Shown: positions 7,885 to 56,386, numbered from the stretch's first letter. The stretch: DNA of 64,000 bases from an uncultured beta proteobacterium (GCA_963827595.1 CAWHBT010000004.1:19730-83729), one strand, 5' to 3'. A program made the numbers and translations. Notes: generated from the letters alone by a model not told the origin.

Positions 7885-7920
7885 ATAGTGGAGTAGCGGG
7901 CAGTCGCAGAGGAGCGACGC

Positions 7921-8313: not shown

Positions 8314-8335
8314 GAATCGGCGCCCTGGCGCCAAC

Positions 8336-8612: not shown

Positions 8613-8628
8613 GGCTTTTTGGCTGATC

Positions 8629-9955: not shown

Positions 9956-10090
9956 GGCAGGCGGAGGAGGATGCGAGGACGTGGACGCGAGATGCGAATA
10001 GTACCGCTCCGCCGCCACTCACGGTGTCGGGTGGGATGCTGCCTGTGAGACAATTACAGGTTGTCGCACGCTCGAACCACTGCGTCTCGC

Positions 10091-12183
<2,093 letters not shown>

Positions 12184-12187
<4 letters not shown>

Positions 12188-12672
12188 AGCGGGTGCTGTT
12201 CGTATGCACGGGGAACATCTGCCGGTCGCCGACCGCAGAGGGGGTGTTCCGGAGGTTCGTCGAGCAGGCCGGTCTTGACGACCGCATCGGCATGGACTCG
12301 GCCGGCACTCACGGGTATCACGTCGGCGAGCCGCCGGATCCGCGCAGCCAAGCCGCGGCGAGCGCCCGGGGCTACGACCTCTCGGGCCTGCGCGCGCGGC
12401 GGATCGCGCGCGAGGACTTCAGCCACTTCGACCTCGTGCTCGCGATGGATCGCGACCACCACACGATCCTCGCCCGGTTCGCGCCTCTGGGCGCCCGGCC
12501 GAAGCTCCGCATGCTGATGGAGTTCGCCCGCCGATCTGGTGTCGACGAGGTGCCCGATCCCTACTACGGCGGGCCCGACGGCTTCGAGCTCGTCCTCAAT
12601 CTCGTCGAGGACGCGGCGGAGGGCCTGCTCGATCACCTTCGACACGAGATCGAGTCGACCGCGCGCAGCTGA
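12184..12672 (+). CDS. Low-molecular-weight protein-tyrosine phosphatase
   Basis: [11 protein letters not shown]-loop; DPYYG. Confidence 0.95.
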
Positions 12673-15481: not shown

Positions 15482-15831
15482 GTAGTTGTTCTCCGGGCGC
15501 GCCGCTGGACAACACGTCCCCTGACTGATGTGGGTCTTAGCGAAGCATGGTGATTGCGCTTGGACTCGGTTTGGTGGTCAGTCGGATTGAACGTATCGTC
15601 GCCCGGTCTGGTCTCCCCGTGCCGGGCTGGGGGGAATCGGTACGGATTCCGGCGCGCTAGTCGATTACTATCGCTGCTTCTGGTGAGCGACTACAACCAG
15701 CTGACGGGTTTGCCCGCACTTCGCGAGCGCGGACCCACTTCGCGGCCGTTAGGCCGGGGACGTGTTGGCGACCGGGCGATGCCTGCGGTCGTTGTCCCGC
15801 GAGCGAAGACAGCGCTCGGATTATATGGAGA

Positions 15832-16794
15832 ATGAAGGGTTTACGCAACGCGCAGGCAAGCCTCGTGGTCGTGGACGAGCGCCATTCGGCACAGCGGGTC
15901 GATAATTTCCTGCTGCGGGAGCTGAAAGGCGTGCCCCGCAGCCACGTCTACCGGCTGCTGCGGGGCGGCGAAGTACGGGTCAACAGCCGGCGCGTCGAGG
16001 CCACCTACCGGCTGCAGCCGGGCGACCGGGTCCGCATCCCGCCGGTGCGGCGAGGCACGCCGCCCGCGCGCGCCGCACCGGGGCCACGGGAGACCGGGTT
16101 CCCGGTCGTCTTCGAGGACGACGCGCTCCTCGTCATCGACAAGCCGGCGGGCGTCGCCGTCCACGGCGGGAGCGGCGTCAGCTTCGGGGTGATCGAGCGC
16201 CTGCGGGCCGAGCGGCCGCACGCGCGGTTCCTCGAGCTCGTGCACCGGATCGACCGCGAGACCTCGGGGTTGCTGGCGTTGGCGAAGAAGCGCACGGCGC
16301 TCCTCGCGTTCCACGCGGCGCTGCGCGAGGGCAGGGTGACCAAACGCTATCTCGCGCTCGTCAAGGGCGCCTGGCGCCAGCCCGCCCGCGACGTCGTGCT
16401 CCCGCTGCGCAGGCTCGTGACTGCGGCGGGCGAGCGGCGGGTGAGAGTGGAGCAGGGGGGACAGGCATCGCGGACGCAGTTCAGGCTGAAGGACCGCGGC
16501 GGCGGATACTCGCTCCTCGAGGCGACGCTCGACACCGGCCGCACGCATCAGATTCGCGTCCAGCTCGCCCACCTCGGCTTCCCGGTTGCGGGCGACGACA
16601 AGTACGGCGACTTCGAGCTCAACCGCCGGCTCGCGAAACAGGGCCTCAAGCGCATGTTCCTCCACGCCCATCAACTCGCGTTCGATCACCCGCTCACCGG
16701 CGCGCCGATCGAGCTCGCTGCGCCGCTGCCTGCAGACCTCGCCCGGTTCGTCCGCGGGCTGCTGGCACCCCGGGTCGATGCCGAAGCGGTTTGA
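15832..16794 (+). CDS. rluC: 23S rRNA pseudouridine synthase C
   Basis: S4 domain, HRIDRETSG, TGRTHQIRV; synteny with rne. Confidence 0.92.
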   Translation: MKGLRNAQASLVVVDERHSAQRVDNFLLRELKGVPRSHVYRLLRGGEVRVNSRRVEATYRLQPGDRVRIPPVRRGTPPARAAPGPRETGFPVVFEDDALLVIDKPAGVAVHGGSGVSFGVIERLRAERPHARFLELVHRIDRETSGLLALAKKRTALLAFHAALREGRVTKRYLALVKGAWRQPARDVVLPLRRLVTAAGERRVRVEQGGQASRTQFRLKDRGGGYSLLEATLDTGRTHQIRVQLAHLGFPVAGDDKYGDFELNRRLAKQGLKRMFLHAHQLAFDHPLTGAPIELAAPLPADLARFVRGLLAPRVDAEAV

Positions 16795-17434
16795 CCTGGT
16801 CGTGTTCGACTGGGACGGGACACTGATCGACTCGGCCGGGGCGATCGTCGCCTGTATCCAGGCGGCGTGCCGCGACCTCGGCCTGCCGGTCCCGGACGAC
16901 GAGCGCGCGAGTCACGTGATCGGCCTCGGTCTCGCCGATGCCCTCGCGCACGCGATTCCCGGTCTGGCGGCGGCGGAGTATCCGCGCGTCGCAGAGCGCT
17001 ATCGGCACCACTTTCTCGTCCACGGCGCCAACCTCCCGCTGTTCCCCGGCACGCAGGAGATGCTCGCCGGGCTGCGCGACAACGGTCACGCGCTGGGGAT
17101 CGCCACCGGCAAGAGCCGCGCGGGGCTCGCTCGCGCGCTGGCGCAGGCGGGGCTGGAGAAAGTGTTCGACGCGACGCGGTGTGCCGACCAATGCGCACCG
17201 AAGCCCGCCCCGGACATGTTGCTCGAGCTGCTGGACGAGGTGGGCATCGCTCCCGGGCGCGCGCTCATGGTCGGCGACACTTCTCACGATGTGCAAATGG
17301 CGGCGAACGCGGGCGTCGCTGCGATGGCTGTGAGCTACGGCGCCCACGACGGGTCGCGGCTGGCAGCGCTGTCACCGCTCGCGCTCGTGCATTCGACACC
17401 GGAGCTCGCTCGATGGCTGGCGGCGAACGCGTAG
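16778..17434 (+). CDS. HAD-IA hydrolase (phosphoglycolate phosphatase-like)
   Basis: FDWDGTL, KPAP, MVGDTSHD motifs. Confidence 0.9.
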   Translation: MPKRFDLVVFDWDGTLIDSAGAIVACIQAACRDLGLPVPDDERASHVIGLGLADALAHAIPGLAAAEYPRVAERYRHHFLVHGANLPLFPGTQEMLAGLRDNGHALGIATGKSRAGLARALAQAGLEKVFDATRCADQCAPKPAPDMLLELLDEVGIAPGRALMVGDTSHDVQMAANAGVAAMAVSYGAHDGSRLAALSPLALVHSTPELARWLAANA

Positions 17435-17760
17435 TCGTCTGTCCGAGCGCCGCCCTGGTCGACGGCGGGGACGGTGTTCGCTTCGAGGTGCGCCGGGGCG
17501 GCGGGCCGCATGCGGCGTTCGCCATCCGGCACGCGGGTCGGGTCCACGCATATCTGAATCGCTGCGCCCACATGGGCGTCGAGCTCGACTGGCAGGCGGG
17601 GCGTTTTTTCGATGCCGAGGGCATGGTTTTGATATGCTCGACGCACGGTGCGCTCTACGATCCGGAGACGGGGGCGTGCTTGGGCGGTCCCTGTCGCGGC
17701 GCAGGGCTCGCGCCCGTTGCGGTCGACGAAGTCGACGGCGAAGTCGTTCTGCGGGAATAG
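17413..17760 (+). CDS. Rieske 2Fe-2S ferredoxin
   Basis: CAH..CSTHGA motifs. Confidence 0.9.
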   Translation: MAGGERVVVCPSAALVDGGDGVRFEVRRGGGPHAAFAIRHAGRVHAYLNRCAHMGVELDWQAGRFFDAEGMVLICSTHGALYDPETGACLGGPCRGAGLAPVAVDEVDGEVVLRE

Positions 17761-17769
17761 GAATCGGCA

Positions 17770-18705
17770 ATGACTGAGAACAGCAGCAACTGGGAGCGCG
17801 GGGTCATCGAGAAGCTCGCGCTCGAAGCGCTCCAGGAGCAGCGTCGCGCGCGCCGCTGGGGGATCTTCTTCAAGGCGTTGACGTTCGCGTACCTGACGTT
17901 TCTCCTGGTCCTCCTCCTCGACCTGCGGCGGACCGACGCCTTTGCGGGCAAGCACTCCGCGCTCGTCGATGTGGCCGGGGTAATCGATGCCAAGGGCAGC
18001 GCGAGCGCGGACAACGTCAACAGCGCGTTGCTGAGCGCCTTCAAGGACAAGAACACGCAGGGCGTGATCCTGCGCGTCAACTCGCCGGGCGGGAGCCCGG
18101 TGCAGGCCGGCCTGATCTACGACGAGATCCGCCGCCTCCGCGACCTCTACCCGAACATCCCGATGTACGCGGTCGTGGAGGACGTGTGCGCCTCGGGCGG
18201 CTACTACATCGCTTCCGCGGCCGACCGGATCTACGTCGACAAGGCGAGCCTGATCGGGTCGATCGGCGTGCTCATGGACCAGTTCGGGTTCGTCGAGACG
18301 CTCGACAAGCTCGGCGTCGAACGGCGCGTGCTGAGCGCCGGCGAGAACAAGACGTTTCTCGACCCGTTCTCGCCGCTCGAGCCGCGCCACGTCGCGCACG
18401 CGAAAGCGCTGCTCGGCGAGATCCACCAGCAGTTCATCGAGGTCGTGCGCAAGGGCCGCGGCAAGCGGCTCAAGGAGTCGCCCGAGCTGTTCAGCGGCCT
18501 CATCTGGACCGGCGCGAAGTCGGTCGAGCTCGGTCTCACCGACGGCCTCGGCAGCGTCGACTACGTTGCGCGCGAGGTGATCAAGGCCGAGCAGGTCGTC
18601 GACTACACGCAGAAGGAGAACATCGCCGAGCGCTTCGCCAAGCGCTTTGGCGCCGGCGTCGCGCAGACGCTCGGGTTGGGCGGCGCGATCCCCCGGCTGC
18701 GCTAG
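17770..18705 (+). CDS. S49 family peptidase (SppA-like)
   Basis: NSPGGS, CASGGYYIA, GSIGV motifs. Confidence 0.93.
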   Translation: MTENSSNWERGVIEKLALEALQEQRRARRWGIFFKALTFAYLTFLLVLLLDLRRTDAFAGKHSALVDVAGVIDAKGSASADNVNSALLSAFKDKNTQGVILRVNSPGGSPVQAGLIYDEIRRLRDLYPNIPMYAVVEDVCASGGYYIASAADRIYVDKASLIGSIGVLMDQFGFVETLDKLGVERRVLSAGENKTFLDPFSPLEPRHVAHAKALLGEIHQQFIEVVRKGRGKRLKESPELFSGLIWTGAKSVELGLTDGLGSVDYVAREVIKAEQVVDYTQKENIAERFAKRFGAGVAQTLGLGGAIPRLR

Positions 18706-19418
18706 CCGGGCGCAGCGAGCAGGAGAAACACCGCCGGCCGCCGGCCGATCGCGCGCGGCGCGGCGCGCCATTCCGCGACGGTTCGCGTTGCGATCGATTC
18801 GCCCGGCGACGTGAGGTCCGCGGCCACGCAGAGCCAGGTTCCCGGAGCGCAGGTTTCCGCGATCACCCGCAGCAGCCGGTCGCTCCGGTAAGGCGTCTCG
18901 ATGAAGAGCTCCGTCCGACCGGCCCGCCGCGAGTCGGCCTCGAGCGCCCGCAACTGCGCCTTGAGCTCGCGCTCCTCGACCGGGAGGTAGCCGTGGAAGA
19001 CGAAGCGCTGGCCCTCGAGTCCCGAGGCCATCAGCGCGAGCAGAATCGCGGACGGCCCGACGAGCGGCACGACGCGAAGGCCGGAGGCGTGCGCCTGGCG
19101 GACGAGCATCGCGCCGGGATCCGCCACCGCCGGCGCCCCTGCGTCGGAGAGCACGCCCGCGTCGCGGCCCTCTCGCACCGGCGCGAGCAGCTCGCGGAGC
19201 CGGGTTTCGTCGGCGCCTGGTTCGAGCTTGACGATGTCGAGCGCGGCCAGCGGCCCGGGATGACCGACGGCCTTGAGGAACGCGCGCGCGCTCTTGGGCT
19301 CCTCGACGATGAAGCAGCCGATGGTGCGGATCCGTTCCCGGACCGCGGGCGGAATCGCTGCGGCGTCGGTGCCGTCGGCGATCGGCGTCGGGATGAGATA
19401 GAGCGTCCCCGTGCTAAT
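18702..19418 (-). CDS. Tetrapyrrole/RsmI-like SAM-dependent methyltransferase
   Basis: GTLYLIPTPI, SDAGAPAVADPG, GPSAILLALMASG, FIETPYR; only an ATT codon lies at the expected start. Confidence 0.85.
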   Translation of the reverse strand: MSTGTLYLIPTPIADGTDAAAIPPAVRERIRTIGCFIVEEPKSARAFLKAVGHPGPLAALDIVKLEPGADETRLRELLAPVREGRDAGVLSDAGAPAVADPGAMLVRQAHASGLRVVPLVGPSAILLALMASGLEGQRFVFHGYLPVEERELKAQLRALEADSRRAGRTELFIETPYRSDRLLRVIAETCAPGTWLCVAADLTSPGESIATRTVAEWRAAPRAIGRRPAVFLLLAAPG

Positions 19419-41363: not shown

Positions 41364-41439
41364 GCGGGAATAGCTCAGTTGGTAGAGCGCAACCTTGCCA
41401 AGGTTGAGGTCGCGAGTTCGAGACTCGTTTCCCGCTCCA
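41364..41439 (+). tRNA. tRNA-Gly (GCC)
   Basis: GCGGGAATAGCTCAG..CTTGCCAAGG..TTCCCGCTCCA, 76 nt. Confidence 0.98.
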
Positions 41440-41496: not shown

Positions 41497-41570
41497 GGCG
41501 GGGTGGCAGAGTGGTCATGCAGCGGCCTGCAAAGCCGTGTACGCCGGTTCGATTCCGACCCCCGCCTCCA
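41497..41570 (+). tRNA. tRNA-Cys (GCA)
   Basis: GGCGGGGTGGCAGAG..CTGCAAA..CCCCGCCTCCA, 74 nt. Confidence 0.97.
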
Positions 41571-45449: not shown

Positions 45450-46430
45450 ATGAGCGCACGTCCTCTCCCCGCCAGAGACAAGCTGACCCTCTGTTTCGCC
45501 CACGTCGCCTATCGCATGGGCGAACGCTTCGCCCTGCGCAACGCCGGCCTCGACTGGTTCGAGGTGCGCAGCCTCGACGCTTTGAAGGCGCGCATCACGG
45601 AGGTGGACGTGCTGCTGTGCTCCGGCCTGTGGCGAAACGAACTGATTCCCGCGGCGCCCAGGCTCGCCTTCATCCAGTCGATCAGCGCCGGCACAGACCA
45701 GTATTCCCGCGACGCGCTGGGCGCGGCCGGCATCCGCGTCGCCAGCGCGCAAGGCGTGAACGAGCGCGCGGTCGCCGAGCATGCGATCGCCTTGATCCTC
45801 GCCATGGCGCGGCAGATTCCGGAGGCGCGCGACAACCAGACCGCGAAGAAGTGGCGCGGCATGATCGGGGACATCTCAAAGCGCGAAGACGAGCTCGGCG
45901 GCAAGACTCTGGTGATCGCCGGCATGGGCCGCATCGGCTCGCGGCTGGCTACGCTCGCGAAGGCCTTCGACATGCGCGTGATCGCCATTCGGCGCGATCC
46001 GTCCAAGGGCGCGGGGGCGGCCGACAAGGTCGTCGGCGAGGATGGCCTGCTCGGCATGTTGCCGCAAGCCGATTTCGTCGCGCTGACCTGCCCGCTCACG
46101 CCCAAGACCGAGAACCTGATCGACGCGAAGGCGTTCGCGGCGATGAAGCCCTCGGCCTACCTCATCAACGTCGCGCGCGGCAAGGTGGTGAACGAGCCGG
46201 CGCTTGTCGAGGCGCTCAACCAGAAGCGCATCGCCGGCGCCGCGCTCGATTGCGTCTGGGAGGAGCCGCTGCCCGCCACGTCGGGGCTGTGGGGCGTGCC
46301 CAACGTGCTGATCACGCCGCACACCGCCGGCGAGACGCGCCGCTACGAGGACAACGTCATCGACCTCTTACTGGAAAACCTCGAATGCCTGTGGCGCGGC
46401 GAAGCGGTGTTGAAGAACCAGTTCGTCTGA
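45450..46430 (+). CDS. D-isomer-specific 2-hydroxyacid dehydrogenase
   Basis: GMGRIG, INVARG, ALDC..EPL, ITPHTAG. Confidence 0.93.
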   Translation: MSARPLPARDKLTLCFAHVAYRMGERFALRNAGLDWFEVRSLDALKARITEVDVLLCSGLWRNELIPAAPRLAFIQSISAGTDQYSRDALGAAGIRVASAQGVNERAVAEHAIALILAMARQIPEARDNQTAKKWRGMIGDISKREDELGGKTLVIAGMGRIGSRLATLAKAFDMRVIAIRRDPSKGAGAADKVVGEDGLLGMLPQADFVALTCPLTPKTENLIDAKAFAAMKPSAYLINVARGKVVNEPALVEALNQKRIAGAALDCVWEEPLPATSGLWGVPNVLITPHTAGETRRYEDNVIDLLLENLECLWRGEAVLKNQFV

Positions 46431-46446
46431 CGCCCGGGGCGTAGAC

Positions 46447-46458
46447 CCCCCGCCTCCA
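46447..46458 (+). repeat. Copy of the tRNA-Cys 3' end (att-like)
   Basis: CCCCCGCCTCCA identical to 41559-41570. Confidence 0.6.
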
Positions 46459-46527
46459 GCCGGTTCCCGAGGACCTCCTTTGCGCTGACCCCGCCGTCGC
46501 GTGTAGTCTCGAGCGCGACTCGCCTGC

Positions 46528-46613
46528 GCCCGGGTGGCGAAACTGGTAGACGCAAGGGACTTAAAATCCCTCGGCTTTCAGCCGTGCAGGTTCAAATCCT
46601 GCCCCGGGCACCA
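46528..46613 (+). tRNA. tRNA-Leu (TAA)
   Basis: GCCCGGGTGGCGAAACTGGTAGACGC..AGGGA-CTTAAAA-TCCCT, long variable arm, ..CCCGGGCACCA. Confidence 0.96.
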
Positions 46614-46776
46614 TTTTAAGAGTCCGCGCACAGCCATGCCCCGGTACCTGAGTTCACGGTGCGCTACGAGATCGTCGGCTAGCGGCTCGCGGCCGCAGCG
46701 GCCGGACGGCCTTGCTTCAATCCGGCGGGTACGTCCAGCGCTGGTAAACTGAGAACCCCTCAAAGGATCAAGTACC

Positions 46777-47022
46777 TTGATAGCCACCCTGCAGTGCCTC
46801 AAGAAATACGGTGAGCGACTCGATTCGGAGATCGCCAAAGAGATGGGCGTGCCGCTTGCGACGGTGCGCGAGCGCCTGGTGCGTCTGGCAGCCGCGGGAG
46901 AGATCATCACCTGCAACCTGACCCGCTTCGAGGGCGGCAACCCGGTCCAAGCGTTGCAGTGTCGCGTGACGGGCTATGTCCCCCCTAAAGCGCCCGGTCG
47001 AAAACCGGCGCTGACGACGTAG
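46777..47022 (+). CDS. Small winged-HTH putative regulator
   Basis: LDSEIAKEMGVPLATVRERLVRL HTH pattern; C-terminal CRVTGYVPPKAPGRK. Confidence 0.7.
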   Translation: MIATLQCLKKYGERLDSEIAKEMGVPLATVRERLVRLAAAGEIITCNLTRFEGGNPVQALQCRVTGYVPPKAPGRKPALTT

Positions 47023-47036
47023 CCGCCGCCCGTACG

Positions 47037-47053
47037 TCCTGCCCCGGGCACCA
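47037..47053 (+). repeat. Copy of the tRNA-Leu 3' end (att-like)
   Basis: TCCTGCCCCGGGCACCA identical to 46597-46613 (17 bp). Confidence 0.85.
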
Positions 47054-47376
47054 GCGCCTCTCGGCGCCGTAGGTGCTACTTCCATCACGCTTCCCGGGCA
47101 CGTCCTCGGACCTGCCACAGCGACGCTGCTGCGAGCTTCGCCGCCAGCGTGCAGTCCTTCTCAAAGATCCCTCGATAACCCCCGAATCTGGCTGTAAAAA
47201 ATCGACGCCAGCCGGTAGGATTTTGGGTTGATCGCAGGCGCCACTGACCGGGCGCGAACCGATGCGACGCGGACCACCCGGAGGAGCGCAATCGATGGCC
47301 ACCCTGACGAAGCTCGTCGGCGAGCACGAGCGCTGCCACGGGCAGTTGAAGTAACCAGCACCCCCGCACACCGTTC

Positions 47377-49266
47377 ATGGCCGCCGCGTTCAATTCCACC
47401 GGCCCCGGCGCGATCGCCGGCGGCCCGACCACGGCGACGGCGACCCAGCAAGAATCCGCGCTCTGGGCGGTCCTCGCGAGCGCGAACGACGCGCGCGAGT
47501 ACTGCCAGAGCTGGCTCGCGATCCAGTCGCGCCTGATCGCGGGGGTCGTCGGCGGCGTCGTCCTCCTGCGGCCCGAGGGCACGGAGAGCTACAGCGCAGT
47601 CGCCGTCTGGCCCGACGTCCGCCGCGACATGGGCTATCTCACTCCCACGGCGCAGAAGGCCCTCGTCGAGCGGCGGGGCGTGGTGACGCCGAACAAGGCC
47701 GGTGCCGACGCGGCGCCGACGAGCGTCCACATCGGCTACCCGGTCGAGGCCGTCGGCCATCTCTACGGCGTCGTCGTGCTCGACGTGTCGCTGCGTCCGG
47801 AGGCCGAGCTGCAGGCCGCGCTTCGCCAGCTGCACTGGGGCGCGGCGGGCCTCGAGCTGATGTTCTGCCAGCAGGAAGTCGCGCGGGTCGGCGAGACGCG
47901 CGACAAGCTGCAGACGGTGCTCGAGGTCGTCGCCTCGGCCGCCGCGCACGACCGCTTCGTCGCCGCGGCGACCGCGCTCGCCACCGATCTCGCCACCCGC
48001 CTCGCGTGCGACCGCGTGAGCCTCGGCTTCGAGCGCGGCGGGCAGATCAAGATCGACGCCGTCTCGCACAGCGCGCAGTTCAAGGAGCGGACCAACCTGA
48101 TGCGCGCGGTCGCGGCGGCGATGGACGAGGCGGTCGACCAGAACTCGACGGTCGCCGTGCCGCCGCCGATCGGCAGCGCGCCCCTCGTGCGCCGGGCGCA
48201 CGATGCGCTGCTGGACGAGCAGGGGTCCGGCGCGTGCTGCACGGTCGTCCTCACCGCGCTTGGCAAGCCCGCCGGGGCGATCACGCTCGAGCGCACCGCG
48301 AAGCGCCCGTTCGACGCCGCGATGATCGAGCTGTGCGAGGCGGTCGCCGGGCTCGCCGGCCCGATGCTCGAGGTCCATCGCCGCGAGGATCGCTGGTTCG
48401 GCGCGCGGCTGGCCGATTGGTGGCGGGAGAAGCTTCGCCATCTCTTCGGCCCGCGCCATCCCGGGCTCAAGCTCGCCGCGATCGTGGTTGCGACGGCCCT
48501 GGCGTTCCTGATCGTGGCGCGCGGCGACTTCCGGGTCTCCGCCGGGTCGGTGCTCGAGCCCCAGCTGCAGCTCGCGGCGACGGCCCCGTTCAACGGCTAC
48601 ATCCGGGAAGCGCCGGTCCGCGCCGGGGATCTGGTGAAGCAGGGCGCGCTCCTCGCCCGGCTCGACGACCGGGACCTCAAGCTCGAGCGGCTGAAAGGGA
48701 TGAGCCAGCAGGAAGAATTGAACAAGCAGGTCCGCCAGGCGTTCGCGGAACGCAACCTCGCGCAAGTCCAGATCGTCACGGCGCAGCTCGAAGCCGCCCG
48801 TGCCCAGGTCGCCCGCGTCGAGGAGCAGCTGCAGCGTACGACGGTGAGCGCCCCGTTCGACGGCGTGGTGGTCTCCGGGGACCTCAGCCAGCAGCTCGGC
48901 GCGCCCGTCGAGCGCGGGACGGTGCTCTTCGAGGTGGCGCCGCTCAGCCAGTTCCGCCTCGTTCTCAAGGTCGACGAGCGCGACGTCGCGTACGTGGAGA
49001 CGGGCCAGCGCGGGACGCTGCTGCTGTCCGCCTTCTCGGACGATCCGATCGGATTCGAGGTCACGAAGATCACGCCGGTGTCCACGCCGCGGGAAGGCAA
49101 GAACTTCTTCCGCGTCGAGGCGCAGCTCGACCGCACCGACCCGCGGATGCGACCGAACATGGAAGGCGTCGGCAAGGTGGAGATCGCCCGCCGCTCGTAC
49201 CTCTGGATCTGGACGCGTCAGGTGGTCGACTCGCTGCGGCTGCTCGCCTGGTCCTGGCTGCCGTAG
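47377..49266 (+). CDS. GAF-like domain + HlyD/membrane fusion protein
   Basis: CDRVSLG..AMDEAVDQ GAF-like region, TM segment, APFNGYI..GDLVKQG lipoyl half-motif, APFDGVV, RPNMEGVGKV. Confidence 0.85.
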   Translation: MAAAFNSTGPGAIAGGPTTATATQQESALWAVLASANDAREYCQSWLAIQSRLIAGVVGGVVLLRPEGTESYSAVAVWPDVRRDMGYLTPTAQKALVERRGVVTPNKAGADAAPTSVHIGYPVEAVGHLYGVVVLDVSLRPEAELQAALRQLHWGAAGLELMFCQQEVARVGETRDKLQTVLEVVASAAAHDRFVAAATALATDLATRLACDRVSLGFERGGQIKIDAVSHSAQFKERTNLMRAVAAAMDEAVDQNSTVAVPPPIGSAPLVRRAHDALLDEQGSGACCTVVLTALGKPAGAITLERTAKRPFDAAMIELCEAVAGLAGPMLEVHRREDRWFGARLADWWREKLRHLFGPRHPGLKLAAIVVATALAFLIVARGDFRVSAGSVLEPQLQLAATAPFNGYIREAPVRAGDLVKQGALLARLDDRDLKLERLKGMSQQEELNKQVRQAFAERNLAQVQIVTAQLEAARAQVARVEEQLQRTTVSAPFDGVVVSGDLSQQLGAPVERGTVLFEVAPLSQFRLVLKVDERDVAYVETGQRGTLLLSAFSDDPIGFEVTKITPVSTPREGKNFFRVEAQLDRTDPRMRPNMEGVGKVEIARRSYLWIWTRQVVDSLRLLAWSWLP

Positions 49267-49270
49267 CAAA

Positions 49271-51415
49271 GTGTCCCAGCAGCTCTTCAGCCCGAACTGG
49301 TACCGGGTCGCACGGCTCACGCCGAGGCTGCGGCCGCACGCTCAGATCCACCGCCATCAGTACCGGGGCGAGACCTGGTACGTGCTCCAGGATCTCGCCT
49401 CGGAGCGATTCCACCGCTTCTCGCCCGCCGCCTACTTCGTGATCGGCCTGATGGACGGCAAGAACACCGTCCAGCAGATCTGGGATCAGGCGCTCGCCCA
49501 GTTGGGTGATGACGCGGTGACCCAGGACGAGGTCATCCAGCTCCTTGGCCAGCTGCACGGCGCCGACGTCCTGCAATGCGACGTGCCGCCCGATACCGCC
49601 GAGCTGTTCCGGCGCCGGGAGCGCCAGGAGCGGCAGGCGTTGATGAAGCGCGTGCTGAGCGTGTTCGCGTGGCAGATCCCGCTGCTCGACCCGGATCGCC
49701 TGCTCGACCGGCTGCTGCCGGCGGCGCGTCCCTTCTTCGGCTGGTTCGGCTTCGTGCTGTGGTGCACGGTCGTCGGCGCGGGCGCGTTCGCTGCCGCCGC
49801 CCACTGGCGCGCGCTCACCGAGGACGTGCTCGACCGGGTGCTGTTGCCCGAGAACCTGCTGATGATCTGGCTCGTCTTCCCGCTGCTCAAGCTCCTGCAC
49901 GAGCTCGGCCACGCGCTGGCGGTGAAAACGCGCGGCGGCGAGGTGCACGAGATGGGAGTGATGATCCTCGTGCTCACGCCGGTGCCCTACGTCGACGCGT
50001 CGTCGGCGTGGGCGTTCCGGAGCAAGTGGCAGCGATTCGTGGTCGGCGGGGCGGGGATGATGGTCGAGCTCTTCATCGCCTCGATCGCGCTGTTCCTGTG
50101 GCTGTCGGTCGAACCGGGACTGTTCCGGGCGCTGCTCTACAACGTCATGCTGATCGCCGGGGTCTCGACGGTGCTGTTCAACGCCAACCCGCTCCTGCGG
50201 TTCGACGGCTACTACATGCTGATGGACTGGCTGGAGATCCCGAATCTCCGCACCCGCGGCAACCAGTATCTGATCTACCTCTGCGAGAAGTACCTGTTCA
50301 AGCGGGCCGAGGCGGAGCCGCCGCTCGCGACCGCCGGCGAGCGCGCCTGGTTCGTCGCCTACACCATCGGCTCGTTCCTCTACCGGATCGTCGTCATCGT
50401 CGCGATCCTGGTGTTCCTGGGCGAACAGTCGCTGCTGCTGGGGATCGTGTTCGCCGGCTTCACCGCGTTCTCGTGGCTGGTGATGCCGGCGGCCAAGATC
50501 GTCAACTACATCCTCAACGACCCCAGGCTGCGCCGGGTGCGGGGCCGGGCGATGGCGGCGAGCACACTGGTCGCGGTGGCGGTCGTCGGCCTCCTGTTCG
50601 CGGTGCCGCTGCCGTTGCGGACCACCGCGGAAGGCGTGGTCTGGCTGCCCGACGAGAGCTTCGCACGCGCCGGCTCGGAGGGGTTCGTCGACCGCGTCGT
50701 CGCCAAGCCCGGCGACTGGGTGAAGCCCGGCGACTCCCTGATCGAAACCCGCGACGTCGAGCTCGCCACCGAGCTCAAGGTCCTCGAGGCGCGGGTGCTG
50801 GAACTGGACGCCCGCCATCGTGCGCACAGCGTCGGCGACCGGGTGAAGGCCGAAATGGTCGAGGAAGAGCGGCGGTTCGCGCTGCAGAACCTCGAGCGGG
50901 CGCGCGAACGCGCGGGCGAGCTCACGATCAAGGCCAGGATGGAAGGCGAGTTCGTCATGCCCCGCGCGCCGGACATGCCGGGACGCTTCGTCAAGAAGGG
51001 CGAGCTGCTCGCGCACGTCGTCAACGTCGACGCGATCATCGTGCGCGCGATCGTGTCGCAGCAGGACATCGATCTCGTCCGCAACTCGACCCGGCGCGTG
51101 GACGTGCGGCTGGTGGAGCACATCGACGCTCCGGTCAGGGGTTCGCTCAAGCGGCTCGTGCCCTCGGCAACCGACCAGCTTCCGAGCGCGGCCCTCGGTA
51201 CGCAGGGCGGCGGGCACGCCGCCGTGGACCCGAGCGACCGCGACGGCCGCAAGACGCTGCAGAAGTACTTCCAGGTGGACGTCGAGCTGCCGCTCGACCG
51301 CAAGCTGCACGTGGGCGGCCGCGCGTACGTGCGCTTCGACCACGGCTGGGAGCCGCTCGGCTTCCAGTGGTACCGGCGGGCGCGCCAGCTCTTCCTGTCC
51401 CGGTTCAATGTCTGA
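49271..51415 (+). CDS. PqqD-like + M50 (site-2) metallopeptidase + MFP fusion
   Basis: HELGH (HExxH), GAGMMVE, NANPLLRFDGY, several TMs; C-terminal lipoyl/coiled-coil MFP region. Confidence 0.85.
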   Translation: MSQQLFSPNWYRVARLTPRLRPHAQIHRHQYRGETWYVLQDLASERFHRFSPAAYFVIGLMDGKNTVQQIWDQALAQLGDDAVTQDEVIQLLGQLHGADVLQCDVPPDTAELFRRRERQERQALMKRVLSVFAWQIPLLDPDRLLDRLLPAARPFFGWFGFVLWCTVVGAGAFAAAAHWRALTEDVLDRVLLPENLLMIWLVFPLLKLLHELGHALAVKTRGGEVHEMGVMILVLTPVPYVDASSAWAFRSKWQRFVVGGAGMMVELFIASIALFLWLSVEPGLFRALLYNVMLIAGVSTVLFNANPLLRFDGYYMLMDWLEIPNLRTRGNQYLIYLCEKYLFKRAEAEPPLATAGERAWFVAYTIGSFLYRIVVIVAILVFLGEQSLLLGIVFAGFTAFSWLVMPAAKIVNYILNDPRLRRVRGRAMAASTLVAVAVVGLLFAVPLPLRTTAEGVVWLPDESFARAGSEGFVDRVVAKPGDWVKPGDSLIETRDVELATELKVLEARVLELDARHRAHSVGDRVKAEMVEEERRFALQNLERARERAGELTIKARMEGEFVMPRAPDMPGRFVKKGELLAHVVNVDAIIVRAIVSQQDIDLVRNSTRRVDVRLVEHIDAPVRGSLKRLVPSATDQLPSAALGTQGGGHAAVDPSDRDGRKTLQKYFQVDVELPLDRKLHVGGRAYVRFDHGWEPLGFQWYRRARQLFLSRFNV

Positions 51416-53393
51416 GCTCGCCCTTCCGGCGCTGGCGCCGACGGCAGCCTATCCGGAGCAGGCCCTCGAGCGTCCGGGCCTGCTCGACCGGATCGCCGAC
51501 CGGATCGCCGGGCCGGTGGCGCGTCGCCTCCACGCCCGGCGCGTCCTCGCCACCGGAATCGTCGCGGCCGTCCATCGCTACGCGAAGGAGGCCGAAAAGC
51601 TCAACGACGCCGGCATCAAGCGCGCCGCGGCGGAGCTGCGCCTCGCGCTCCGTCGCGATGGCTTCGCCGAGCCGGTCGTGGCGCAGAGCTTCGCGCTCGT
51701 GCGCGAGGTGGCGGGGCGGACGCTCGGGATGCGGCACTTCGATTCGCAGCTCCACGGCGGCTGGATCCTGCTGAACGGCATGGTCGCGGAGATGGAGACG
51801 GGGGAGGGCAAGACCCTGACCGCGACGCTCCCGGCGTGCACCGCCGCGCTCGCCGGCCTGCCGGTCCACGTGATCACCGTCAACGACTACCTCACCGCCC
51901 GCGACGCCGAGCTGATGGGGCCGGTCTACCGGATGCTGGGGCTGTCGGTCGGGGTGGTGGTGAACGGGAAGGAACCCGCCGCGCGGCGCGCGGCGTACGC
52001 CTGCGACATCACCTACTGCACCAACAAGGAACTCACGTTCGACTATCTTCGCGACCGGACTGCGGTCGGCGCGCAGGTGAACCGCATCCAGCTCTCGATC
52101 GAGCGGCTCGCCGGTGGCGAGAATCGCGCGAGCCGGCTGGTCCTGAGAGGGCTGTTCTTCGCCATCGTCGACGAGGCGGACAGCGTGCTCTGCGACGAAG
52201 CGCGCACGCCGCTGATTCTCTCCGCCCGGTCGGAGCAGGCGCCGGAGCGGTCGATGTACGAGACGGCGCTGACCGTGGCCGCCCGGCTCAAGCCGACCGA
52301 GGACTTCGTGGTCGAGGGGGGCGAGCGGCAGGTCCGGCTCACCGCGGAGGCGAAGCAGAAGCTGGCGGGGTGGGCCGAGGCCCTGCCGGCCGCGTTCCGC
52401 GGGACGCGCCGGCGGGAGGAACTGGTCAAGCAGGCGCTCGTCGCGATGCACGTCTTCAAGTGCGACACGCACTATCTGGTCCGCGACGACAAGGTCCAGA
52501 TCATCGACGAGTACACCGGGCGGATCCTGCCCGACCGTTCGTGGGAGCAGGGCCTGCACCAGATGGTCGAGGCCAAGGAAGGCTGCCCGCTGACCGGCCA
52601 GCAGACCTCGATCGCGCGGATGACCTATCAGCGGTTCTTCCGCCGCTATCTCCGGCTCGCCGGCATGACCGGCACCGCCCAGGAGATCGCCCCGGAGCTC
52701 TGGTCCACCTACCGCTTGCCGGTCGTGAAGGTCCCGACGAACCGTCCGATCCAGCGGCGCGACCTCGGAGAACGCGTGTATCTGACGCCCGATGCGAAGT
52801 GGCGCGCCACCGTGGAGCGGGTGCGGGAGCTGATCGCGGCGCGACGGCCCGTGCTGGTGGGAACCCGGTCGGTCGGCGCGTCGGAGGAACTCAGCCGGCT
52901 CCTCACCGAGGCCGGGGTCGAGCATCAGCTTCTCAACGCCCGCCAGGACAAGCAGGAGGCGGACATCGTTGCTCAGGCGGGACAGCAGGGACGGGTCACG
53001 GTCGCGACGAACATGGCGGGTCGCGGGACCGACATCCGTCTCGGGAAGGGCGTCGAGCCGCTGGGCGGGCTCCACGTCATCGCCACGGAGTTGCACGAGT
53101 CGCGCCGGATCGACCGGCAGCTCTTCGGCCGCTGCGGCCGGCAGGGGGATGCCGGGAGCTTCGAGGCGATCATCTCGGTCGAGGACGAACTGAGCCGCGT
53201 CTACCTCGGCGGCCTGCTGCGGGGGCTCGCGCGGCGGTTGGCGCTAGGCGGCGCCCCGCAGGCGCATCTGCGCCGGCTCATCCGGATCGCTCAGGCGCGC
53301 GCCGAGCGCAGCCACGCCGCGATCCGCCGCGATCTGCTCAAGCTGGACGAGCAGCTCGGCGACCTGCTGGCGTTCTCGGGAAGAGGGGAGTAG
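51408..53393 (+). CDS. Truncated SecA paralog (SecA_DEAD ATPase, 661 aa)
   Basis: EMETGEGKT, TVNDYL, DEADS..DEARTPLI, GMTGTA, TNMAGRGTDI, HESRRIDRQLFGRCGRQGD; ends soon after, without the canonical SecA C-terminus. Confidence 0.92.
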   Translation: MSELALPALAPTAAYPEQALERPGLLDRIADRIAGPVARRLHARRVLATGIVAAVHRYAKEAEKLNDAGIKRAAAELRLALRRDGFAEPVVAQSFALVREVAGRTLGMRHFDSQLHGGWILLNGMVAEMETGEGKTLTATLPACTAALAGLPVHVITVNDYLTARDAELMGPVYRMLGLSVGVVVNGKEPAARRAAYACDITYCTNKELTFDYLRDRTAVGAQVNRIQLSIERLAGGENRASRLVLRGLFFAIVDEADSVLCDEARTPLILSARSEQAPERSMYETALTVAARLKPTEDFVVEGGERQVRLTAEAKQKLAGWAEALPAAFRGTRRREELVKQALVAMHVFKCDTHYLVRDDKVQIIDEYTGRILPDRSWEQGLHQMVEAKEGCPLTGQQTSIARMTYQRFFRRYLRLAGMTGTAQEIAPELWSTYRLPVVKVPTNRPIQRRDLGERVYLTPDAKWRATVERVRELIAARRPVLVGTRSVGASEELSRLLTEAGVEHQLLNARQDKQEADIVAQAGQQGRVTVATNMAGRGTDIRLGKGVEPLGGLHVIATELHESRRIDRQLFGRCGRQGDAGSFEAIISVEDELSRVYLGGLLRGLARRLALGGAPQAHLRRLIRIAQARAERSHAAIRRDLLKLDEQLGDLLAFSGRGE

Positions 53394-53399
53394 CGAGCG

Positions 53400-54206
53400 C
53401 TACTTCAGGAACCGCATCCGGCACTTGGCGCCGGCGGGGACGAGCTACTTGTCGTTCGGGAGCTCGAGGCGCACGCCGAACGTGCCGCTCGCGGCATTGA
53501 TCACGCGGTCCACGACCTTCACGCGCGCCGCGAACTTCTGCGCCGGCGTCTCGGGCGACACCTCGGCGCGGTCGCCCTGCTGGATCGAGCCGTAGAGGCT
53601 CGCCGGCAATATGACCTCGACGTTCAGCGGATCGATCTCCGCCACCCGGAGAATCGGGTCCTTCACGTTGGTCGCCGCCATCTCGCCGGTCTTCTGATAC
53701 CGGTCGACGACCACGCCGTTGACGGGGCTCCGGAGCGTGCGCAGATTGACCACCTCGGTCGCGCGCTGGACCTCGAGCTCGGCGAGCCGCTGGTTCTCGC
53801 GCGCCACCTTGAGGTCGGACTCGGCGAGCGAGCGCTCGGTCCGCGCTTCCTCCAGGGCGTTCGATGAAATGAACGCCTGACGGGCGAGCTCCTCGGCGCG
53901 CTTCTCTTTCTTCGAGGCGAGGTCGAGCTTGGCTTCGGCCAGGTTGACCGCGCCGATCGCCCCGGCGCGCTGCCGCGCCACGGCGAGTGCGGCCCGCTCC
54001 GGGCCTGACTCGAGCGTGACCAGGACCTGGCCCTTTTTCACCGATTCGCCGCGTTCCACGGCCACTTTCTCGATGAGTCCCTCGACCGGGCTGCGGATAT
54101 CGACCATCTGACGCGCTTCGATGATGCAGTCGTAGTCCTGGGCCGCGACCGGCAGGGCGGCGAGGAAGGCAACGGCAAGGCCAGCGCGCAGGAGGGAGTG
54201 TTTCAT
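53400..54206 (-). CDS. RND/HlyD-type periplasmic adaptor (MFP) with an in-frame TAG near the C-terminus
   Basis: Signal peptide, SPVEGLI..GESVKKGQVL, SPVNGVV, INAASGTFGVRLELPN; TAG at 53445 is followed in frame by LVPAGAKCRMRFLK*. Confidence 0.85.
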
Positions 54207-54429
54207 CGAGGTTCGGACCGCTAGGGAAGGCGATTCTCACCGTCGCTCTCAGAGGGTGTAAAGGAGGAAACCGACGGTTTCCCAACGGATGTCCAGGTTT
54301 GGGGCACCGCGTGGGCGGACTGAGGGCTTTTCACCGGGTCGCCCGGCCGGTTTTGGGCCGGGAGCCGAGGGGTCCAAACGGGCGGCATCCCCGTACAATC
54401 GGAAAGTCTGTTCGCTTGAGGCCGCCTGG

Positions 54430-54879
54430 ATGATCGTATTCGAGCTTATTTGCTCCGGACAACACCGGTTCGAGGGGTGGTTCGCGTCCGGAGAGGACTT
54501 CGAGCAACACCGTCTCGGGGGCCTGTTGTCTTGCCCGGTGTGCTCGACGGGCGAGGTGGCAAAGCTTCCCAGCGCGAAGCTCGGCCGATCAGGCGAGGAC
54601 GCTCCGCGCGACCCGAAGGCCAGCGCGCCGCAAACGCGACCCGCGGCCCCGACCGCGGCGCAGGCCGCGGCGGCAGTAGCGGCGTTCGTGGACCACGTCT
54701 TACAGAACACTGAGGACGTGGGACGGGCGTTTCCCGCGGAAGCTCGAAGAATCCACTACGAAGAGGCGCCGCGCCGCGGGATTCGCGGGACCGCGACCCG
54801 CGAGGAGACGGAAGCGCTGGCGGAGGAAGGAATCGGAGTCCTGTCGCTGCCGATCCCGCGGCGGGAGGACTATCACTGA
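54430..54879 (+). CDS. DUF1178-like protein
   Basis: MIVFELIC..HRFEGWF..CPVC..EDVG..EARRIHY..LAEEGI. Confidence 0.85.
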   Translation: MIVFELICSGQHRFEGWFASGEDFEQHRLGGLLSCPVCSTGEVAKLPSAKLGRSGEDAPRDPKASAPQTRPAAPTAAQAAAAVAAFVDHVLQNTEDVGRAFPAEARRIHYEEAPRRGIRGTATREETEALAEEGIGVLSLPIPRREDYH

Positions 54880-54890
54880 CCGGTAGCGCA

Positions 54891-54918
54891 ATGCGCGAGA
54901 ATGTGTATTATGTAAAAT
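54891..54918 (+). other. dif (XerCD) chromosome dimer resolution site
   Basis: ATGCGCGAGAA-TGTGTA-TTATGTAAAAT; XerD arm 10/11 to E. coli TTATGTTAAAT; intergenic between convergent genes; KOPS polarity flips here. Confidence 0.8.
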
Positions 54919-54954
54919 TATTGCTCCTCAGACCGATCCTCGAGCGTCCTTCGA

Positions 54955-55600
54955 TCACTCCTTAGCTCCCCCCCGCCTCAAGAGCTCCGCAGCCTCCGCG
55001 TTTCCCGCCTTCAGGGCCCACCGCAGCGCCGTACCCCCCGCGTCCGTCGTGACGTTGGGATCGGCAGCCCCCCGCAGCAACAGCCTCACCACCTCCGAAT
55101 GCCCGTTGCGAGCGGCGACCATCAGCGGCGTCGCTCCGTTGGGTGCCTGAGCATTGACGTCCGCTTTGCTTTCGATCAGATACCTGCAGACGGCAGCGTG
55201 CCCCTGGAATGCACAGTAGTGCAACGCCGTCCAGCCGTCCTTGTCCAGGGTGGCGCCCCGTGCGTGGAGCAGCTTGACGCGTCTCGACGTGCCCCCGGAA
55301 CGCCGCGAACATGATCGCGGTCTCGTTGCTCGGCGTGCGCTGGTTCACCCTCGCCTTCCGGTCGGCGAGGAAGCGGACCATTTCGATGTCGCCCTCGCGG
55401 GCGGCGATCATCAGGAGGGAGTACCCCTCCTTGCTGGTCGAGCTCGGGTCCATTCCCCGGTCAAGGAGGCTGCGCACCCCGTCCAGGTTGCTCGTTCCGG
55501 CGGCTCTGAACAGGTCATCCAGCGTCGCCCCCTGCGCGGCCGCGAGTGAGGACCAGATAGACAATAGATAACAACTTGTGATCAGTGAGTTACGAACCAC
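54955..55600 (-). CDS. Exported ankyrin-repeat protein (apparent frameshift near 55280)
   Basis: GYSLLMIAAREG, ETAIMFAAFRGH / GWTALHYCAFQGH, GATPLMVAARNGH split over two frames. Confidence 0.85.
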
Positions 55601-55603
55601 ATT

Positions 55604-56386
55604 TCACCTTGTTTCGAGATCTTTCGCGGATCGAAACACGCGGAAGAAGTTGGCCGTCGTCGCCGCCGCGACCTCCTCAAAGGGCATCGCCCGCAAGCGG
55701 GCAACCTCCTCCGCCACGTGGCGAACATACGCCGGCCGGTTCACCTTCCCCCGATAGGGCACCGGCGCTAGATACGGCGAGTCGGTCTCGACCAGGATGT
55801 GCTCCATCAGCAAGGCCTTCGCCACCTCGCGGACCGAGCCCGCGTTCCGGAAGGTCACGATGCCCGAGAACGAGATCAGGAAGCCCATTTCGACCGCCGC
55901 CAGCGCCACGTCGAGGGTCTCCGTAAAGCAGTGCATGACCCCTCCGACTTCACCCGCGCCCTCCTCCCGCATAATCCGCAACGTGTCGTCGGCCGCGGAC
56001 CGCGTATGGATCACGAGCGGCTTGCGACACGCCCGTGCGGCCCGGATGTGCACGCGAAACCGCTCCTGCTGCCAGCCAAGATCGCCCTGGAGCCGGTAGT
56101 AGTCGAGACCGGTCTCGCCGACGGCCACGATCCTGGGGTGGTCGGCGAGCGCCACCAGCTCGTCGACGGCGACCTCCCCGGCGTCCGGGTAGTCCGGATG
56201 GACTCCGACCGTGGCGAACAGCTGCGGGTGCGCCTCGGCTAGCGCCCGGACCCGCGGGAAGTCCTGCAGGGTGACGCTGATGCACAGCGCGTGCGCGACG
56301 CCGGCCGCGGACATCTCCGCCAGGAGCTCGGGGATGCGATCGCGGAACTCATCGAAGTCGAGGTGGCAATGGGAGTCGACCAGCAT
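55604..56386 (-). CDS. TatD-family hydrolase (YcfH-like)
   Basis: DSHCHLD, GETGLDY, IHTR, HCF, ETDSPYLAP. Confidence 0.95.
   Translation of the reverse strand: MLVDSHCHLDFDEFRDRIPELLAEMSAAGVAHALCISVTLQDFPRVRALAEAHPQLFATVGVHPDYPDAGEVAVDELVALADHPRIVAVGETGLDYYRLQGDLGWQQERFRVHIRAARACRKPLVIHTRSAADDTLRIMREEGAGEVGGVMHCFTETLDVALAAVEMGFLISFSGIVTFRNAGSVREVAKALLMEHILVETDSPYLAPVPYRGKVNRPAYVRHVAEEVARLRAMPFEEVAAATTANFFRVFRSAKDLETR

Follow-up and report, generated by a model that had tools for sequence, protein, structure and literature searches.

A putative export locus with a protease-adaptor fusion and a truncated SecA paralogue in an uncultured beta proteobacterium, and its association with giant LEPR-XLL proteins

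The locus and its four genes

We examined a stretch of 64,000 nucleotides from an uncultured beta proteobacterium (GCA_963827595.1, CAWHBT010000004.1:19730-83729; hereafter the window, part of contig C4 of the assembly), in which four adjoining genes at positions 47377 to 54206 encode a putative export module for giant proteins with an N-terminal LEPRxLLS leader. The first (47377..49266, + strand) encodes a GAF-adaptor protein of 629 residues, with a cytoplasmic GAF region, one transmembrane helix (approximately residues 363-381) and a periplasmic HlyD-type adaptor. The second (49271..51415, + strand, GTG start) encodes a 714-residue fusion of a PqqD-like domain, of the kind that serves as recognition element (RRE) for ribosomally synthesized and post-translationally modified peptides (RiPPs), an M50-type site-2-protease-like domain and a further HlyD-type adaptor. 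A truncated SecA paralogue of 661 residues follows (51408..53393, + strand), comprising both nucleotide-binding domains and the preprotein cross-linking domain, and the fourth gene (53445..54206, - strand) encodes a short periplasmic HlyD-type adaptor of 253 residues with a signal-peptide-like N-terminal segment. A preliminary description, made from the window alone, had given this layout of four open reading frames (ORFs) with a 4-bp gap and an 8-bp overlap, and its coordinates proved exact; the stop codons of the SecA-like and short adaptor genes face each other across 51 bp. All four ORFs carry a high-GC coding signature (GC content at third codon positions, GC3, 0.90-0.94). The ratio of non-synonymous to synonymous substitution rates (dN/dS) against the relatives G406, G402 and G407 lies between 0.10 and 0.22 for all four genes, and between 0.10 and 0.20 for the GAF-adaptor gene against three relatives of the genus; the four module genes are under purifying selection in this genus.

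Pfam models for GAF, HlyD_3 and HlyD_D23 matched the 629-residue protein, and HlyD together with a biotin-lipoyl domain matched the 253-residue protein. HlyD_3 or HlyD_D23 matches in three proteins of the locus mark them as membrane fusion proteins of the type I secretion kind. The energiser of classical type I secretion, an ATP-binding cassette (ABC) transporter, is encoded neither in the operon nor among the scanned neighbours. The window likewise holds no TolC gene, the TolC-family OEP matches of this genome lying on five other contigs (C10, C12, C13, C16 and C17), and no gene for a large substrate, there being no LEPR-XLL match and no ORF of more than 919 residues in it. In all three respects the preliminary description had read the window correctly.

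The protease-adaptor fusion

In the fusion protein, Pfam recognised PqqD (PF05402, 27.2 bits against a cut-off of 23.4) and HlyD. The M50 motifs, previously described as intact, are indeed so (HELGH at residue 210, NANPLLRFDG at 304), and all 117 of the 117 representatives in the alignment have H210, E211, H214, N304, N306, P307 and D312, so that HExxH and NxxPxxxxDG, the motif pair of site-2 proteases, are both conserved among the relatives. These relatives are numerous: at least 4,483 cluster representatives matched at E <= 1e-30 in a 50%-identity library, the top 150 of them nearly all full-length and 37-57% identical. The best named family for residues 18-404 is the daptide HExxH intramembrane metalloprotease (NF041824, 1.1e-51), with a match that spans profile positions 1-363 of 379 and reaches 176.1 bits against a cut-off of 300.

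A structure model of the fusion, built on a 117-row alignment, had a mean predicted local distance difference test (pLDDT) score of 92.8 and a predicted template modelling (pTM) score of 0.81. Foldseek on the full model returned adaptor proteins only, and the protease and RRE matches come from a wider VIA-align search. Residues 18-104 resembled leader-bound RRE proteins (5v1u, Z 9.7, root-mean-square deviation (rmsd) 3.0 over 83 aligned residues; 6jx3, Z 9.6) and PqqD itself (5sxy, Z 8.8), and family match and fold together identify this part as a PqqD-like RRE. A further likeness of this fold is to the C-terminal domain in PKMT methyltransferases (8hkr, Z 10.2; 5doo, Z 9.0). Residues 437-705 resembled efflux adaptors (4dk1, Z 13.9, rmsd 6.3 over 239 residues; MacA, MexA and EmrA, Z 13-14). 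Residues 191-323 and 142-402 were placed with RseP and SpoIVFB (RseP 7w6z, Z 9.8, rmsd 3.0 over 131 residues; SpoIVFB 8vjl, Z 9.4, rmsd 4.8 over 169 residues; 9j83, Z 9.3), at Z values of 9-10 that, by the tool's own warning, can be common for helical proteins. The modelled site-2 protease fold lends support only in combination with the motifs that do not vary.

The likeness to RseP and SpoIVFB, and the presence of a GAF domain, might suggest a signalling role, in which a GAF sensor and a site-2-type protease would carry out regulated intramembrane proteolysis of a membrane regulator, with the adaptors and the SecA-like protein as accessories. We regard this as very improbable. No anti-sigma or sigma gene was found among the scanned neighbours of the locus, three TolC-type adaptors, and TolC in related operons, fit a conduit, and the partners that the co-occurrence analysis brings out are giant proteins of secreted type.

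The SecA paralogue

The 661-residue protein matched SecA_DEAD (341 bits), SecA_PP_bind and P-loop_SecA, and it gave no match to SecA_SW. It was said to keep its ATPase motifs and to lack the canonical C-terminal part, and both statements hold: Walker A (GEGKT at 132), DEAD (at 255) and GRCGRQGD (at 574) are in place, and the protein ends early in the scaffold helix. It is 42% identical to the canonical SecA of the same genome, and their alignment ends at about canonical residue 656, some 45 residues into the scaffold region. Among solved structures it aligns to residues 9-603 or 9-606 of SecA chains of Bacillus subtilis length and, because the alignment stops there, it lacks the wing, the C-terminal tail and the two-helix finger that inserts into SecY.

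Whether this was the only SecA had been raised as a check. A full-length SecA, with SecA_SW at residues 619-831, is encoded on contig C1, and the genome has one SecY gene. The module is distinct and conserved, and stands apart from the housekeeping Sec system, whose SecA and sole SecY are encoded elsewhere.

Two records in the family searches join parts of the module in single ORFs: P0275 (1,373 residues, PqqD and SecA) and P0276 (1,506 residues, SecA and HlyD), each known from one record on one contig. Genuine fusions of this sort would be evidence that the proteins associate physically; we do not count these two as evidence, since they may be read-through artefacts of overlapping genes.

Association with giant LEPR proteins

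The fusion, the LEPR-8K model (24 positions) and SecA_DEAD were searched in the same sample of 401 genomes of the phylum, this genome included. The fusion was matched at E <= 1e-30 in 94 genomes and by a strong orthologue in 38 of the 401, where 'strong' denotes a full-length match at E <= 1e-94, a threshold picked after a gap had been seen in the list. LEPR-8K matched 57 genomes and none of 14 control genomes, and 40 genomes had at least two SecA_DEAD matches. With this genome left out, at least two SecA_DEAD matches were found in 35 of the 37 strong-orthologue genomes vs 4 of the 363 others, and an LEPR-8K match in 34 of the 37 vs 22 of the 363, contrasts for which Fisher values overstate the association, as the sampled genomes are related to each other. 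The expectation that the genes would co-occur in other genomes is therefore borne out: a second SecA and giant LEPR proteins both track the fusion orthologue.

The association extends to gene position. A strong orthologue and an LEPR match occur together in 35 genomes (this one included), and in 20 of these the LEPR ORF and the fusion gene share a contig, always 1.1-11.4 kb apart, with no more than 2.9 kb between them in 15 cases out of the 20; in the remaining 15 genomes they are on different contigs. In G418 and G027, which belong to two other genera, the giant gene, one small gene (DUF3467 in G418, SapC in G027) and the genes for the GAF-adaptor, the fusion, the SecA-like protein and the short adaptor follow each other in this order, all co-directional. 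The giants beside the module in these two genomes contain RTX nonapeptide repeats, a hallmark of proteins that leave the cell via TolC-type systems. RTX nonapeptide repeats were also found in G421, in the portion examined (beyond the N-terminus) of a large ORF some 4.6 kb away from the fusion gene.

The neighbourhoods of the module in these genomes hold further genes. In G418 a WelO5-like halogenase, a methyltransferase and two B12-radical SAM enzymes are encoded beside it (14662-18975), in G421 two tryptophan halogenases and a PKMT-type methyltransferase (2407-6060 and 13528-15327), and in G027 the SapC gene mentioned above occupies 13896-14675.

Variants without a SecA paralogue

Eighteen LEPR-positive genomes have a weaker fusion match only (E 1e-30 to 1e-60), and all of them except G202 have a single SecA_DEAD match. 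We examined two, G083 and G123. The operon of G083 (G083:C1:452000-471900) encodes on one strand a short adaptor, a GAF-adaptor, an M50-adaptor, a sulfotransferase, an LEPR/DUF4347 giant of 2,464 residues and TolC, and no ATPase was found among the nine ORFs scanned in these 20 kb. The sulfotransferase gene stands between those of the protease fusion and the giant. In G123 (G123:C1:3145000-3164900), where the stretch covers the locus up to the last gene of the operon, the genes for a 4,381-residue LEPR giant, TolC, two adaptors and an M50-adaptor are again on one strand; one of the two adaptors is short, and the second gave no GAF match. Among the genes scanned in the two stretches there was no ABC transporter.

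From these gene orders, the core of the system appears to consist of TolC, LEPR cargo and three adaptor-type proteins, the protease fusion among them. The two operons support TolC dependence, and they weaken the earlier idea of a SecA paralogue as the necessary driver of substrate through the M50 protein.

The various tailoring-type enzymes near the module in other genera (halogenase, B12-radical SAM, methyltransferases, sulfotransferase), the daptide protease as best named match and an RRE fold similar to that of lasso-peptide B1 proteins could also be taken to mean that the system matures and exports small peptides in RiPP fashion, the PqqD-like domain binding a short precursor, the M50 part trimming its leader and the adaptors exporting the product. 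We give this very little probability. The daptide model falls well short of its cut-off, neither the 764 bp upstream nor the 51-bp gap contains a small ORF with a coding signature, and the window contains no modifying enzymes; a wider look for a small precursor gene in 46430-47377 and 54206-55604 yielded only ORFs of low GC3, apart from a DUF3467 remnant described below. Co-occurrence and adjacency favour giant LEPR proteins as partners, and a SecA-type preprotein motor is left unexplained by RiPP systems.

Candidate cargo in this genome and predicted leader binding

A single LEPR-XLL/DUF4347 gene is present in the genome; it lies on contig C1, with an ORF that starts at about 557900 and encodes at least 1,955 residues before it is cut by the contig end. 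Its product matched LEPR-8K at 30.7 bits in the genome search and 25.9 bits at the protein level (cut-off 17), and has DUF4347 at residues 112-281 (5.8e-52) as well as beta-helix domains. Because the module lies at least 67 kb from either end of C4, cargo gene and module are truly unlinked in this genome.

We docked residues 1-110 of this protein with residues 1-430 of the fusion, each with its own alignment (that of the leader drawn from 14 genomes). The scores were 0.71, 0.71 and 0.74, the best of three controls scoring 0.00; in the tool's calibration, 58 of 80 solved complexes attain the mark applied, as do 2 of 110 mismatched pairs, counts that hold only roughly here since own alignments were used. 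The runs agreed in at least 69% of contacts, with a partner pLDDT of at least 40. The placed part of the leader comprises only residues 49-68, which include LEPRLLMSAD. In the docking model this segment runs along residues 38-57 and 83-98 of the PqqD-like domain and, in the protease domain, also lies against residue 207, H210, E211, H214, the strand of residues 236-247, residues 299-315 (D312 among them) and residues 324-328. The LEPR leader is thus predicted to sit both on the PqqD-like domain and in the HExxH site. The earlier suggestion that the M50 part cleaves a leader gains from the invariant motifs and from the modelled position of the leader in the active site; the cleavage itself we infer.

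The surroundings of the LEPR gene raise another question. It stands head-to-head with a classical type I operon (G000:C1:545000-563764) that encodes a 746-residue RTX/cadherin protein (local 6408-8648, - strand), a 461-residue HlyD (8827-10212, - strand) and a 552-residue ABC transporter (10209-11867, - strand), the LEPR gene itself occupying local 12901-18765 (+ strand). The arrangement is kept in G402, where an LEPR gene begins about 1.2 kb away from an ABC gene that is 85% identical. Because the LEPR gene adjoins a type I operon here and in G402, a conventional exporter could serve its product, and the module might then be concerned with processing or retention only, cleaving or tethering the LEPR leader while the ABC system beside the cargo gene translocates the protein. 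Giants of the LEPR class do carry RTX repeats typical of ABC-exported proteins, and the docking model speaks to leader binding alone. We nonetheless consider such a division of labour unlikely. The ABC operon on C1 has its own RTX substrate in the 746-residue protein, the presence of three adaptor-type proteins is difficult to reconcile with a pure protease, and in G083 and G123, where TolC and three adaptors adjoin the M50 fusion and the giant, the scanned genes include no ABC transporter. According to the text of their report, Kamneva et al. likewise found no ABC transporter in such loci (PMC4452313).

The module within the genus

The module is present in all eight other genomes of the genus at 79-91% identity, split over two contigs in G404. 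LEPR matches occur in five of the eight, never on the contig of the module. The short adaptor gene is convergent in all seven genus relatives examined, with syntenic downstream genes, and is co-directional in G418 and G027. The lack of TolC and cargo genes beside the module is a peculiarity of this genus; most other genomes have the giant gene next to it.

A further difference concerns DUF3467 (PF11950), which Pfam identified in G402 and G418. A full-length match lies just upstream of the GAF-adaptor gene in G402, G403, G405, G406 and G407 (the G407 copy being 52% identical), and the gene was matched only in part in G401 and G408. In the window, alignment to G406 reveals a remnant, a 30-codon ORF (47262..47354, + strand) whose first codons match the start, and whose last 16 or so codons match the end, of the relatives' gene of about 104 codons, with about 250 nt missing relative to G406; no DUF3467 was found elsewhere in this assembly, which is 81% complete. 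The alignment indicates that the partner gene has been deleted in this assembly. Sequencing runs added little: no RNA run was listed, the best DNA run contained 0.28 of the words, and four runs assembled at 90% likeness gave only short contigs of related populations, with no piece among those listed that spans the deletion point or the 47192-47455 bin.

The SecA-like gene is frame-broken in G405 (2793-4783, three frames) and in G403 (10383-12372, two frames), which may reflect either assembly errors in low-quality genomes (66% and 78% complete) or inactivation. Together with the inverted fourth gene, the loss of DUF3467 here and its partial state in G401 and G408, and a cargo gene that is unlinked in all five genus genomes showing it, these breaks could be read as signs that the module is a relic on its way out in this genus, severed from its cargo gene. 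This seems to us quite improbable, as the four genes are intact here with their catalytic motifs kept, their dN/dS values are low (0.10-0.22), none of the eight other genus genomes lacks the module, and both frame breaks occur in the low-quality assemblies. The window is a natural experiment, in which the module is kept under selection though it is unlinked from its cargo and has no DUF3467 partner.

Proposed mechanism

It is most likely, in our view, that the module reads the LEPRxLLS leader, cleaves at an intramembrane zinc site and exports a giant RTX-type protein via a conduit of HlyD adaptors to TolC, with the wingless SecA as motor; we hold this with somewhat better than even confidence. 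The reading builds on the genes present and their conservation, on co-occurrence, on adjacency elsewhere and on purifying selection; the folds and the predicted leader interface come from structure models only. Cleavage, export, the role of the ATPase, the use of TolC and the identity of the cargo in this genome are its putative elements.

The locus would then constitute the inner-membrane and periplasmic part of a type-I-like, TolC-dependent machine for giant RTX-type LEPR-XLL/DUF4347 surface proteins, the likely cargo here being the product of the gene on C1. The cytoplasmic PqqD-like domain would catch the leader by strand pairing, in the manner of an RRE, and the LEPRxLLS segment would be handed to the adjoining intramembrane zinc-protease site, where the leader is removed. 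The truncated SecA, in which the SecY-docking parts are missing, might clamp the unfolded chain and thread it in an ATP-driven fashion. The periplasmic adaptor parts of the 629-, 714- and 253-residue proteins would form the conduit to a TolC-family channel encoded elsewhere, and the cytoplasmic GAF region of the 629-residue protein may gate the machine or act as its sensor.

Several observations weigh against this proposal. No component of the module is a known protein-conducting channel. Peptidase_M50 scored 20.1 bits on the fusion, below its cut-off of 27.2, and the Z values for the protease fold are of a size that helical proteins commonly reach. Since RRE-leader and SpoIVFB-substrate complexes have already been solved, the docking pass may partly reflect likeness to them. 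Because the G083 and G123 operons are without a SecA paralogue, a dedicated SecA does not belong to the minimal core, and the SecA-like motor appears, from these gene sets, to be an addition in one large branch. Three of the 37 strong-orthologue genomes have no LEPR-8K match, and the relatedness of the sampled genomes inflates the association. Within the genus, LEPR matches are absent from three of the eight genomes (G403, G404 and G406), among which G406 is rated 100% complete, in 260 contigs. The LEPR gene and the module of this genome are on different contigs (C1 and C4), the former beside a potential exporter of its own, and the apparent deletion of DUF3467 and the frame-broken SecA-like genes of G403 and G405 point in the same direction.

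It is possible, at somewhat less than even chances, that these genes and TolC represent an undescribed class of secretion system for giant RTX-type proteins that follows a RiPP-like logic. An LEPRxLLS leader would be read by an RRE on a protease-adaptor, and a wingless SecA, not an ABC transporter, would drive the chain into a conduit of three adaptors; tailoring enzymes encoded beside the module in some genomes (halogenases, radical SAM enzymes, methyltransferases, a sulfotransferase) may be directed by this leader too, and SecA-less variants would borrow the housekeeping SecA or use another energy source.

Surroundings of the locus

The genes around the module are those of a TRAP transporter, a dehydrogenase, a tRNA-Leu, a DUF1178 protein, an ankyrin protein and TatD. 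The tRNA-Leu(taa) gene found by ARAGORN (46528..46613, + strand) forms the upstream boundary, and is also upstream of the module in G406 (91% DNA match). Directly after it, a stretch of about 420 nt (46614..47036) has no blastn match in G406, the closest relative; it is probably outside the module and may be a small insertion at the tRNA. It contains an 81-residue ORF (46777-47022, + strand) with a weak coding signature, for which the Pfam matches to HTH_20 and GntR were all below cut-off. Further upstream, 5-6 kb from the locus, are tRNA-Gly(gcc) (41364-41439, + strand) and tRNA-Cys(gca) (41497-41570, + strand), preceded by a gene that we take from its translation to be CDP-alcohol-phosphatidyltransferase-like, with TRAP transporter genes on the other side.

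Between the tRNA-Leu and the module, a 61-nt block that genus relatives share (47128..47188, + strand; blastn, 84% identical to G402) is a candidate promoter or regulatory region of the operon. The promoter scan gave a single site, a sigma-70-like match before the short adaptor gene (54233..54262, - strand), which is a consensus match only (one found vs 0.3 expected), and the terminator scan of 46400-54400 gave no site vs 3.0 expected.

Just past the short adaptor gene are the DUF1178 gene (54289-54879, + strand) and the ankyrin-repeat gene (54962-55600, - strand), the latter with an N-terminal hydrophobic segment. At these positions the genus relatives have ORFs of similar length (147 and 210-213 residues), which had no blastp match to the called ORFs of the window, a set that excludes the DUF1178 and ankyrin genes. 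Neither gene has an evident tie to the module.

Comparison with known systems

The preliminary description had mentioned a comparative-genomics report of secondary SecA_DEAD proteins with type I-related genes, which is that of Kamneva, Poudel & Ward (2015; PMC4452313). As its text has it, 'secondary' proteins with a SecA_DEAD domain are encoded beside three HlyD-domain proteins, in loci with weak M50 similarity, a GAF domain and sometimes an OEP gene, and never an ABC transporter (PMC4452313). The 2015 proposal, in which the SecA-like protein is the ATPase and the M50 protein might be the membrane pore, the role being stated as unknown, is in essence the motor-through-M50 idea that the preliminary description arrived at (PMC4452313). 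To judge by that text, the present locus agrees in its GAF/HlyD, weak-M50/HlyD, wingless SecA_DEAD and HlyD/biotin-lipoyl proteins, in the second SecA_DEAD protein without all or most of wing and scaffold beside a separate canonical SecA, and in the lack of an ABC transporter; the neighbouring genes correspond as well, and META1p2402-2399 of Methylobacterium extorquens AM1 have the gene order found here (PMC4452313). It differs in its inverted fourth gene, in the deletion of DUF3467 and in a likely cargo gene on another contig, and the text of the 2015 report names no cargo, PqqD-like domain or DUF3467 partner, though its supplements may list more (PMC4452313).

The locus is therefore a further copy of a widespread kind already in print, with a mechanism that is inferred, and the window adds an informative unlinked case to it, not a new system. 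As had been supposed, our literature searches found no experimental characterisation of the kind, and in the same searches the link to LEPR-XLL/DUF4347 cargo, the prediction of leader docking, the DUF3467 partner and the SecA-less variants were not found in print. The kind could be a new secretion route. The fusion occurs in about a tenth of the sampled phylum genomes (38 of 401 at the strict threshold), and a specific 20-residue leader segment is predicted to bind its PqqD-like domain and protease site. If the proposal is true, it would account for the exit of some of the largest bacterial proteins from cells in the absence of an ABC transporter, would place a SecA-driven, leader-dependent route among the known secretion systems, and would provide a case of a RiPP-type recognition element that acts on a giant protein.

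Accessory SecA2 of Gram-positive bacteria and mycobacteria is comparable in being a second, shorter SecA besides the housekeeping copy, and SecA2 chains (6t4h, 6sxh) are among the best PDB sequence matches of the paralogue. In contrast, the NCBIfam models TIGR04397, TIGR03714, TIGR04221 and NF012136 all scored far below their cut-offs, the genome with its one SecY has no SecY2, the truncation is deeper, removing wing and two-helix finger, and the partners are adaptors and a protease. In the fusion, as in RseP and SpoIVFB, one helix bears HExxH and a second bears NxxPxxxxDG, and there is an edge strand (236-241) that touches the modelled substrate; the fusion differs from them in its sub-threshold M50 score in Pfam, in having no PDZ or CBS domains and in being joined to an RRE and an adaptor. 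The daptide protease NF041824 is the nearest named family for residues 18-404, and leader-bound lasso-peptide B1 proteins resemble the fusion in RRE fold; the predicted strand pairing with the leader is similar as well. Here, by contrast, the family score is below cut-off, and the protease is continuous with a periplasmic adaptor and apparently has a giant protein, not a short peptide, as its substrate.

Among exporters, peptidase-containing ABC transporters (PCATs) work with HlyD and TolC in the export of leader-bearing bacteriocins, and combine a C39 cysteine peptidase with ABC domains. They offer a parallel in that an N-terminal leader is recognised and cut by a protease within an inner-membrane exporter that is coupled to an adaptor and TolC, although here the protease would be an intramembrane zinc enzyme with an RRE, the ATPase a separate SecA-like protein and the cargo thousands of residues long. 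Giant RTX adhesins (LapA with LapBCE and LapG/LapD; SiiE; MpIBP) leave by type I secretion, with an ABC transporter, a C-terminal signal and a periplasmic protease. The parallels are giant surface proteins of repetitive RTX type, a conduit of the TolC kind and N-terminal control by proteolysis, while the present module has no ABC transporter and its N-terminal LEPRxLLS leader is modelled in a site that is cytoplasm-facing or intramembrane.

A kindred theme is found in a preprint description, as far as its available text extends, of wingless SecA_DEAD and preprotein-binding domains inside giant proteins of Omnitrophota and Actinobacteria (West-Roberts et al., 10.1101/2023.11.21.568195). In both cases SecA motor domains without wing or scaffold occur besides a normal SecA, are tied to giant proteins and have been proposed to serve their export; in those giants, according to the same text, the SecA part lies inside the protein, near transmembrane segments, whereas here it is a separate protein of 661 residues encoded in an operon with adaptors and a protease (10.1101/2023.11.21.568195).

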